A stretch of DNA of 64,000 bases, taken from the sequence record NC_041919.1. The stretch is one strand, 5' to 3'. This document shows, one piece after another, positions 36,882-38,221 of the stretch. A program made the translations under genes and the position numbers. The notes under the pieces were generated by a model. It did no database searches, had not been told where the DNA came from, and saw only the letters and a program-made list of their open reading frames with translations. The DNA is from Escherichia phage HP3. The first letter of the stretch is position 1. Each line of letters starts with the position of its first letter.

Positions 36882-37442
36882 ATGATTAATAAAATTGTGC
36901 ATGAAATGGCTTTAAACGGAGATTCATATAAAATATCTGCCGTAGTTGAAAATTTCATACTTAATAAAGTAAAAGAATATTTCACTGATTGTTCAGTTAG
37001 TTATCAAGAAAAAATGGTTTTAACCGATGATACTGAAAAATCAAATAATTTGTTTTGTTCTAATTTTATAACTAAGAAGCGTACTAGAAGATTTGATATT
37101 GTTATTTCTCGCAACGGTAAAAAGCATATAATTGAAATTAAACACCAAGTTGGTGGAGGTACAGCTATTGATTCGGTTGGAATATATTTAGAAGATAAAG
37201 AGAAATTAAAAGAATACACAAAAACTGAAAACCCTGTGTCATTGATGATATTAGATTTTTTGCCATGCGGATATTATCCACGTAATAAATGGACAAAAAG
37301 AGAATCATTTACTGATAATCCAACCATCCAAGCAAGATTTAATGAATATGCTAAATCACAAAACGTGTTAGTATTACTATCAAATACATATGATGAAGAA
37401 TTATATAATTCGTTTTTTGCTGCAATAAATGAGAGAATATAA
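36882..37442 (+). CDS. hypothetical protein with PD-(D/E)xK-like nuclease motif
   Basis: 186 aa; [21 protein letters not shown] fits D..(E)xK; stop overlaps dam start (TAATG). Confidence 0.6.
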
Positions 37443-38221
37443 TGCTAGGAGCTATCGCGTATACAGGTAATAAACAGTCATTATTACCTGAACTTAAGCC
37501 TCATTTTCCAAAATATGACAGATTCGTGGATTTATTTTGTGGAGGTTTATCAGTGTCTTTGAACGTCAATGGTCCTGTATTGGCCAATGATATTCAAGAA
37601 CCAATTATTGAAATGTATAAGCGTCTTATTAATGTATCATGGGATGACGTTTTAAAAGTAATAAAGCAATACAAACTATCAAAAACATCAAAAGAAGAGT
37701 TTTTGAAATTACGTGAAGATTATAATAAAACTAGAGATCCTCTTTTACTTTATGTTCTTCATTTTCACGGATTTAGTAATATGATTCGTATAAACGATAA
37801 AGGAAATTTTACTACTCCGTTTGGAAAAAGAACTATAAACAAAAATAGTGAAAAACGCTTTAATCACTTTAAGCAAAATTGTGATAAAATAATCTTTAGT
37901 TCATTGCATTTTAAAGATGTCAAAATTCTAGACGGCGATTTTGTATATGTGGACCCTCCATATCTTATAACAGTTGCTGATTATAATAAATTTTGGTCAG
38001 AAGAAGAAGAAAAAGACCTTTTAAATCTTTTAGATTCTTTAAATGACAGAGGAATAAAATTTGGACTGTCGAATGTTTTAGAGCATCACGGAAAGGAAAA
38101 CACTCTTCTTAAAGAATGGTCTAAAAAATATAATGTTAAGCATCTTAATAAAAAATACGTCTTTAACATATATCATTCCAAAGAAAAGAATGGAACTGAT
38201 GAAGTATATATTTTTAATTAA
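37442..38221 (+). CDS. dam: DNA adenine methyltransferase Dam
   Basis: 259 aa; [10 protein letters not shown] motif and DPPY catalytic motif. Confidence 0.9.

Follow-up and report, generated by a model that had tools for sequence, protein, structure and literature searches.

The dam gene of Escherichia phage HP3 is preceded by an overlapping open reading frame (ORF), here called R, that almost certainly encodes a protein with the PD-(D/E)xK restriction-endonuclease fold, as judged from a structural model. The reading we favour, at a probability of roughly 0.55, is that R and dam together constitute a compact type II-like restriction-modification (R-M) module of T4-type phages. The pair lies in a 64,000-nucleotide (nt) segment of this Tequatrovirus genome (NC_041919.1), the whole of which is referred to here as the window; features are on the + strand unless stated otherwise. 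T2 and T4 Dam have been model DNA methyltransferases for fifty years and have been treated as orphan enzymes whose role in the phage is obscure. If R is the cognate endonuclease, then Dam would be the protective half of an R-M cassette, with T4 having lost the nuclease and T6 being without the whole cassette.

The R gene occupies positions 36882 to 37442 and is predicted to encode a 186-amino-acid (aa), PD-(D/E)xK restriction-endonuclease-like protein. The adjoining dam gene (37442 to 38221) encodes a D12-class N6-adenine (GATC) DNA methyltransferase, the product of which matches Pfam MethyltransfD12 (PF02086, E=6.5e-51) and TIGR00571 (E=1.4e-69) and is 100% identical to T2 Dam and 97.7% identical to T4 Dam. 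A sequence-only reading of this DNA had described an ORF of this length immediately 5' of dam, a D..ExK motif within it, and overlap of its stop codon with the dam start codon, and each of these features is present: FDIVIS corresponds to residues 71-76 (containing D72) and IEIKHQ to residues 84-89 (containing E85 and K87), and the R stop codon (TAA, 37440-37442) shares one base with the dam start codon (ATG, 37442-37444) in the sequence TAATG (37440 to 37444). The two genes and their putative promoter form a cassette (36794 to 38241) delimited by comparison with T6, as BLAST of the T6 interval between genes 61 and 56 showed homology to the window ending at 36793 and resuming at 38242. The G+C contents of R and dam are 27.5% and 28.7%, versus 34.5% for the window. 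The 1.8 kb around the cassette is 100% identical in Escherichia phage HP3.2 and 99% identical in many further isolates. R is annotated as a hypothetical protein in all GenBank records inspected, and no function has been assigned to the PHROG family to which it belongs (phrog_8706).

Structure prediction with AlphaFold2, using an alignment of the R family, yielded a confident single-domain model (predicted local distance difference test score (pLDDT) 81.7, predicted template modelling score 0.79). In the model, a helix is followed by three strands, a second helix and a further strand, which corresponds to the alpha-beta-beta-beta-alpha-beta core of PD-(D/E)xK enzymes. Residues that are invariant in nine diverged sequences, down to 29% identity, include E23, R69, D72, H82, E85, K87, H88, Q89, G93-T-A-I-D-S98 and D125. 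The D...(D/E)xK catalytic signature is represented by D72, E85 and K87, to which E23 can be added. E23 (codon 36948 to 36950) is in the first core helix and aligns with the invariant E152 of DpnII. The predicted catalytic beta-hairpin, which extends to Q89, includes D72 (37095-37097), E85 (37134-37136) and K87 (37140-37142; 37095 to 37142 overall), and all three align with residues of MunI, and D72 and E85 also with D201 and E214 of DpnII. The hairpin is followed by a Gly-rich loop, G91-G-G-T-A-I-D-S98 (37152 to 37175), a candidate DNA-recognition loop that is invariant from G93 to S98 and modelled with poor confidence (pLDDT about 49). We consider R likely to be catalytically active.

R belongs to a tiny family. 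Searches of a word-indexed set of 5.8 billion proteins, together with an exhaustive profile search of 1.8 billion representatives, returned a handful of relatives, and all of those that could be placed came from T4-like phage DNA. The family comprises about ten lineages, including a GenBank homologue in Klebsiella phage KPV15, that are 29-98% identical to the window protein, and all are intact ORFs. Neither the profile search of the 1.8 billion representatives nor a second word-indexed search with a wider alignment produced bacterial relatives or new lineages. Across the family, the proportion of nonsynonymous differences (pN) is 0.18-0.43 and that of synonymous differences (pS) is 0.5-0.9, and the ratio of nonsynonymous to synonymous substitution rates (dN/dS) is about 0.1-0.2 where dS is unsaturated. 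By these sequence measures, R is under purifying selection where it is present, and because intact homologues extend to 29% identity with pN far below pS, we regard it as a real, maintained gene. Four further proteins matched the family over short stretches and contain unrelated domains or are of great length (P0008, with PF01370; P0010, with PF18343/PF03590; and P0016 and P0017, of 765 and 4741 aa); the probable explanations for these are chimeric assembly, artefacts of gene calling or matches to low-complexity sequence.

In all 10 lineages, a D12-class methyltransferase gene overlaps or abuts the 3' end of R, the adjacency that characterizes type II R-M genes. The overlap is 1 nt in five lineages, including that of the window, and 0, 4, 7, 20 and 35 nt in the five others. 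T2 has a 13-nt gap between R and dam that results from a 1-nt deletion in a run of T residues, which alters the last residues of R. The pair occurs in three genomic contexts: in Tequatrovirus and related metagenomic contigs it is flanked by the primase gene 61/dam.1 and the dCTPase gene 56; in Klebsiella phage KPV15 it follows rIIB and a denB homologue (in the order denB-x-R-dam); and in one metagenomic contig it immediately precedes rIIA. R and Dam identities co-vary across pairs (Spearman 0.92, uncorrected for phylogeny), with R diverging faster.

The sequence upstream of R contains a T4-early-type promoter, GTTTAC-17 nt-TGnTATTAT (36827 to 36856), identified by inspection and by a consensus scan, whose function we infer. 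A GTTTAC...TGaTAnnAT arrangement is present upstream of the R homologue in seven of nine diverged lineages despite their differing flanks. A Shine-Dalgarno (SD) sequence, GAGGA (36870 to 36874), lies 7 nt before the R start codon, and SD-like GGAG or GAGG is found at the equivalent place in homologous R loci. The dam gene has an SD sequence of its own, GAGAGA (37431 to 37436), within the last R codons; GAGAGA or GAGAGG located 5-8 nt before the dam ATG is conserved in seven lineages, and it is retained in T4. Because dam has this SD sequence inside the 3' codons of R, the stop/start overlap probably helps, but is probably not essential for, translation of Dam. Taking together the adjacency in every lineage, the three different neighbourhoods, the early-type promoter and the low G+C content, we read R and dam as an autonomous two-gene early transcription unit, driven by a putative promoter.

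Other candidate regulatory signals were also noted at this locus. The best sigma-70-like match in the region, TGGACA-18-GATAAT (10/12 positions; 37290 to 37319), is inside the 3' part of R and might give dam a separate transcript, but such matches are no commoner than in shuffled sequence. In three diverged lineages, perfect dyads overlap the promoter -10 element or the SD sequence upstream of the R homologue: 14 bp at the P0013 locus, 9 bp in KPV15 and 8 bp at the P0002 locus, reached in 0, 6 and 15 of 500 shuffles, respectively (approximate positions 70-130 in locus L008, 3425-3462 in L009 and 4300-4335 in L012). These dyads might control the cassette, either as an operator or as a hairpin in the mRNA. 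A conserved dyad operator as a general feature was dropped from consideration, as only three of nine lineages were positive and the window was negative: upstream of R it contains no significant dyad, only CTCAGC/GCTGAG with a 26-nt loop. A search of 35000-40000 with Rfam identified no RNA family.

The distribution of the two genes among Tequatrovirus phages is asymmetric. In the phage collection, about 146 records contain both R and dam, about 34, T4 included, contain dam and a decayed R, and 294 have the cassette-less junction of the T6 type; no record contains R but lacks dam. About 180 records encode a Dam at least 90% identical to that of the window and about 181 have R or an R remnant at 80% identity or more. 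Although the counts are approximate and the records are not phylogenetically independent, R was never found without the methyltransferase gene, whereas the methyltransferase gene can be present alone, as occurs with type II R-M systems. The finding that R decays while dam stays, and never the reverse, is as predicted for a toxin-antidote relation such as restriction-modification.

T4 provides a clear example of this decay. The sequence-only reading had suggested that dam follows gene 61 more directly in T4, and this is correct: the gap between 61 and dam is 309 bp, and only the last ~28 R codons are left. Aligning T4 with the window revealed a 548-bp deletion between 8-bp direct repeats, ATCACAAA on the left (36807 to 36814) and ATCACAAA on the right (37355 to 37362), that removed the promoter, the SD sequence and R codons 1-158 and created the junction sequence ATCGCAAA. 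R was damaged independently in KarlGJung (Bas37), which has a different deletion, from 36881 to 37244, and in G29, in which R is broken by a 1-nt frameshift. In T2 (LC348380, MH751506; L010 1501..2046), a C-terminal frameshift results in an R protein of 181 aa that ends ...YNSFLLQ, and the gene no longer overlaps dam; this T2 allele, with the 1-nt deletion in the T run, is also the one found in the T4 remnant. R of T2 has been public since the 1988 T2 dam record (M22342), where it is unannotated. Since Dam-positive Tequatroviruses seem always to carry R or its wreck, the sequence comparison implies that the orphan Dam of T4 descends from an R-dam pair. A potential T4 dam promoter, P(E)17.40, was annotated in 1984 (record X01416, 391..419); its -35 element is left of the deletion junction and its -10 element is right of it, mapping to ~36798-36803 and ~37370-37374 of the window, respectively. 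If real, P(E)17.40 would be a fusion promoter made by the very deletion that removed R.

Two small ORFs were observed near the cassette. The first, a 66-aa hydrophobic antisense ORF (phrog_2024; 36582 to 36782, - strand), occupies the interval from gene 61 to the cassette, with a 4-nt overlap at the gene 61 stop codon. The T6 record calls it dam.1 and the JB75 record 'putative membrane protein'; it is intact in T4 (3239..3439 of the T4 locus, L001; 6 aa differences) but unannotated in the T4 RefSeq record, and it is kept in T6 despite there being no dam gene there. The second, a 93-aa ORF between dam.1 and R in metagenomic relative L012 (4010..4291), corresponds to the C-terminal half of proteins in phrog_4856, a family of nucleoside triphosphate pyrophosphohydrolases.

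In sequence, R is remotely similar to DpnII, an enzyme that cuts unmethylated GATC and is partnered by a methyltransferase homologous to Dam. When R was compared with 24,736 Pfam families, DpnII scored best (PF04556; E=0.0045, 16.8 bits), with a match confined to positions 152-235 of the 278-position profile and below its gathering threshold. Four of the nine R family members match this Pfam family (best E=8.3e-5), three match PADLOC model PDLC03548 (best E=5.3e-6), on which DpnII itself scores 420 bits, and a fourth matches PDLC03569, a shorter DpnII-related model of about 205 aa. For profile-profile comparison we built an alignment of 15 DpnII sequences; the DpnII sequence used was verified by its score on PF04556 (336 bits) and by its 99-100% identity to pneumococcal entries in the database. 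In hhalign (E=6.5e-4, probability 28%), E23, D72 and E85 of R fell on the invariant E152, D201 and E214 of DpnII, K87 fell on N216, and the Gly-rich loop after strand 3 fell on GGSKLNE; the conserved core of DpnII also includes D252. The AlphaFold model of DpnII has the same order of elements as that of R: a Glu helix, a strand, an Asp strand, a Glu strand, a low-confidence Gly loop, a helix, and a strand followed by an invariant Asp. Low-stringency hhalign gave no trustworthy R-DpnII alignment outside the catalytic core. We consider this sequence relationship to be suggestive rather than conclusive, and have not filed R as a member of the DpnII family because the N-terminal 120-150 residues are missing, E-x-K takes the place of E-x-N, and the curated threshold is not reached.

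R also resembles MunI at the active site. D83, E98 and K100 are the catalytic residues of MunI, and in hhalign (pairwise E=0.0026, limited to the 27-column catalytic hairpin; MunI sequence checked against PDB entry 1d02) D72, E85, K87 and Q89 of R fell on D83, E98, K100 and Q102. BLASTP found no significant overall similarity to MunI (E=1.8), and neither the single R sequence nor the family profile matched the sequences of solved structures at E<=10. A relationship to EcoRI by profile was rejected, as the only match was a spurious one of 19 columns and the E-A-K-H-Q resemblance is a local motif only. The GNAxER motif and AATT core specificity of EcoRI and MunI are not features of the R family, which has the invariant GTAIDS; the likeness of GTAIDS to GNAxER was judged by eye alone. 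The nearest relatives of R in structure and sequence are type II enzymes, and the proposal of the sequence-only reading that R is a restriction-endonuclease-fold nuclease is supported. Its suggestion of a MutH- or DpnI-like enzyme fared poorly: R matched neither the MutH nor the Vsr families, no sequence-profile or close structural similarity to MutH placed it in the MutH/Sau3AI family (MunI and other double-strand-cutting type IIP enzymes score far above MutH in structural comparison), and the R model is one 186-aa domain that has no winged-helix methyl-sensing domain of the DpnI (type IIM) kind and no DpnI family match.

Our data suggest the following model. R would be a small endonuclease consisting of one domain and belonging, by structure, to the EcoRI/MunI class of PD-(D/E)xK type II enzymes, with an active site formed by E23, D72, E85 and K87, and would be transcribed together with dam from one early promoter. 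Probably as a homodimer, R would cut unmethylated GATC, or a closely related site, to leave 4-nt 5' overhangs, while Dam, produced from the same transcript, would methylate the same sites and protect the phage DNA. That R has a methylation-sensitive GATC specificity, as the remote DpnII resemblance would indirectly suggest, is in our judgement an even bet. The targets of R would be any GATC-unmethylated DNA in the infected cell, i.e., Dam-less co-infecting phages such as T6-type relatives, under-methylated foreign DNA, or the DNA of Dam-less hosts. R-dam would at the same time be a selfish unit, in that dam could not be lost while R is active, and a purely selfish stabilizing role is possible.

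The natural target of R is the weakest point of the R-M model. T4 DNA is resistant to 94% of type II enzymes tested, with glucosyl-hydroxymethylcytosine blocking most (PMC7653180). Because enterobacterial hosts are Dam+ and this modification blocks most type II enzymes, the most attractive targets are co-infecting Dam-less T6-type phages or other under-methylated invaders. Several other observations weigh against the model. The DNA of the usual hosts, being Dam-methylated, would be protected, and since glucosyl-hydroxymethylcytosine in T-even DNA blocks most type II enzymes, Dam might be unneeded for self-protection. R is dispensable, because it is often lost and most relatives are without the cassette, and dam has its own SD sequence and works in T4 without R. 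The similarity of R to DpnII and MunI is below curated thresholds (16.8 bits versus the Pfam cut-off of 23 bits), the hhalign probabilities are low (28% and 11%), five of the nine R family members have no PADLOC match, and R lacks ~120-150 N-terminal residues of DpnII and has E-x-K rather than its E-x-N. The co-occurrence counts among Tequatrovirus phages, which are approximate, come from records that are not phylogenetically independent.

We considered four alternative roles for R. One in which R attacks the cytosine-containing DNA of the host, either in the manner of DpnI (dependent on N6-methyladenine, at Gm6ATC) or in the manner of Sau3AI (indifferent to adenine methylation and blocked by hydroxymethylcytosine), is the sole reading with an abundant target, as hosts are Dam+; the Dam-methylated chromosome would be degraded and the phage genome spared, and Dam would either assist by finishing the methylation of host DNA or have no functional link with R. 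T-even phages are already equipped with cytosine-specific nucleases, the pair lies next to a denB homologue in KPV15, and the early-type promoter and PD-(D/E)xK fold would suit such a role, but we consider it unlikely, as R has no methyl-sensing domain and no DpnI family match. R could instead be a homing-type endonuclease like T4 Seg or Mob that cuts the cassette-less 61-56 interval during co-infection and spreads by recombinational repair with dam hitch-hiking, and its patchy distribution is compatible with this idea. However, the presence of R at three unrelated genome positions, always with dam, points to a functional two-gene unit rather than to homing at one locus, R decays while dam stays, and the nearest relatives in both structure and sequence are type II restriction enzymes, all of which make homing improbable.

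Less probable still is that R is an enzyme of repair or recombination that senses Dam methylation and nicks one strand of the phage DNA as it replicates or recombines, analogous to MutH or Vsr, given the lack of a family match to either, the far higher scores of MunI and other type IIP enzymes, and the fact that R is dispensable and often lost. We think it equally hard to credit that R is a catalytically dead or repurposed restriction-fold protein, e.g., one that binds DNA and regulates the expression of dam or the specificity of Dam. Regulators are often required by R-M systems, the activity of R is so far only predicted, and dyads overlap the promoter or SD sequence in three of nine homologous loci, but dyads are absent or insignificant in the window and most lineages, and invariance of the full E...D...ExK set over 29-98% identity would be unexpected in a mere DNA binder. 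Taken jointly, the alternatives are opposed mainly by the lack of methyl-sensing domains and of MutH, DpnI or Vsr family matches, by the fact that R is linked to dam at three loci, and by the invariance of its catalytic residues.

A more speculative extension of the R-M model, which we hold to be doubtful, is that the cassette is a weapon in phage-phage competition and that R has evolved to cleave GATC lacking methylation even where the DNA contains glucosyl-hydroxymethylcytosine. Closely related T-even phages would on this view be of three classes, namely killer (R+M+; HP3-type and perhaps T2), immune (R-M+; T4) and sensitive (R-M-; T6), and Dam-less relatives would be destroyed or gene-converted in mixed infections. 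Competition of this sort would explain why T-even phages retain a Dam that has no known phenotype, and would contribute to the strong GATC depletion of their genomes. Of all 4-base palindromes in the window, GATC is the most under-represented, with 74 sites observed versus 212 expected from trinucleotide frequencies (observed/expected 0.35), uniformly along its length, and it is depleted as well in T4, T6, KPV15 and metagenomic T4-like loci (observed/expected 0-0.47). This depletion is consistent with GATC sites having long been under selection in these phages, but does not discriminate among a phage GATC nuclease, host MutH and host GATC restriction.

Full-text literature searches found no publication on the R ORF, and no T-even restriction partner for Dam is mentioned in those passages of a 2025 restriction-modification review that matched the search. 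Type II-like R-M modules are a known kind of system; what is new here is the R family of enzymes, its occurrence in phages that are virulent and hypermodified, and what it implies for T-even Dam. If the R-M model is true, R would define a very small family of type II-like restriction enzymes that is new, and might be able to act on hydroxymethylcytosine DNA. The cassette would then exemplify an R-M module carried by phages that are both virulent and hypermodified, and T2, T4 and T6 would offer natural genotypes for a direct test. The model may also matter for therapeutic phage cocktails, as the cassette is present in HP3-type phages and there might be mutual interference between phages that have it and phages that do not.

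Among known systems, the R-dam pair bears the closest resemblance to DpnII/MboI (PF04556, with the methyltransferases DpnM and M.MboI). In both cases the partner is a D12-class GATC adenine methyltransferase, the core motifs (a helix Glu, the Asp of RFDxVI, the Glu of IE(V/I)x and a Gly-rich loop) can be aligned, at low probability, the modelled secondary-structure elements follow the same order, and DpnII is the best-scoring sequence family for R. The phage pair differs in that R scores below the Pfam gathering threshold, the order is R then M with overlapping codons, the carriers are virulent hydroxymethylcytosine phages rather than bacteria, and GATC specificity is predicted only. MunI and EcoRI share the predicted structural class, but in R their GNAxER motif, which recognizes AATT, is replaced by the invariant GTAIDS nearer the active site, and the partner methyltransferase is another one. 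The overlapping dcm-vsr pair of E. coli has the methyltransferase gene first, and Vsr is a mismatch-specific nicking repair enzyme with no sequence-family relation to R. Like R, the genes for Seg and Mob homing endonucleases are optional and patchy, are inserted between conserved genes, and have their own promoters; unlike R, with its PD-(D/E)xK fold and linkage to dam at three loci, they encode GIY-YIG or HNH enzymes. In its biology, the pair may resemble the R-M systems of chlorella viruses (e.g., R.CviAI/M.CviAI, specific for GATC), which use their own restriction enzyme and cognate methyltransferase during infection (references are listed in PMC4081073). Both the chlorella viruses and the R-containing phages would be lytic viruses equipped with a restriction enzyme and its methyltransferase, although the former infect eukaryotic algae and target unmethylated host DNA, whereas the hosts of the latter are Dam-methylated.

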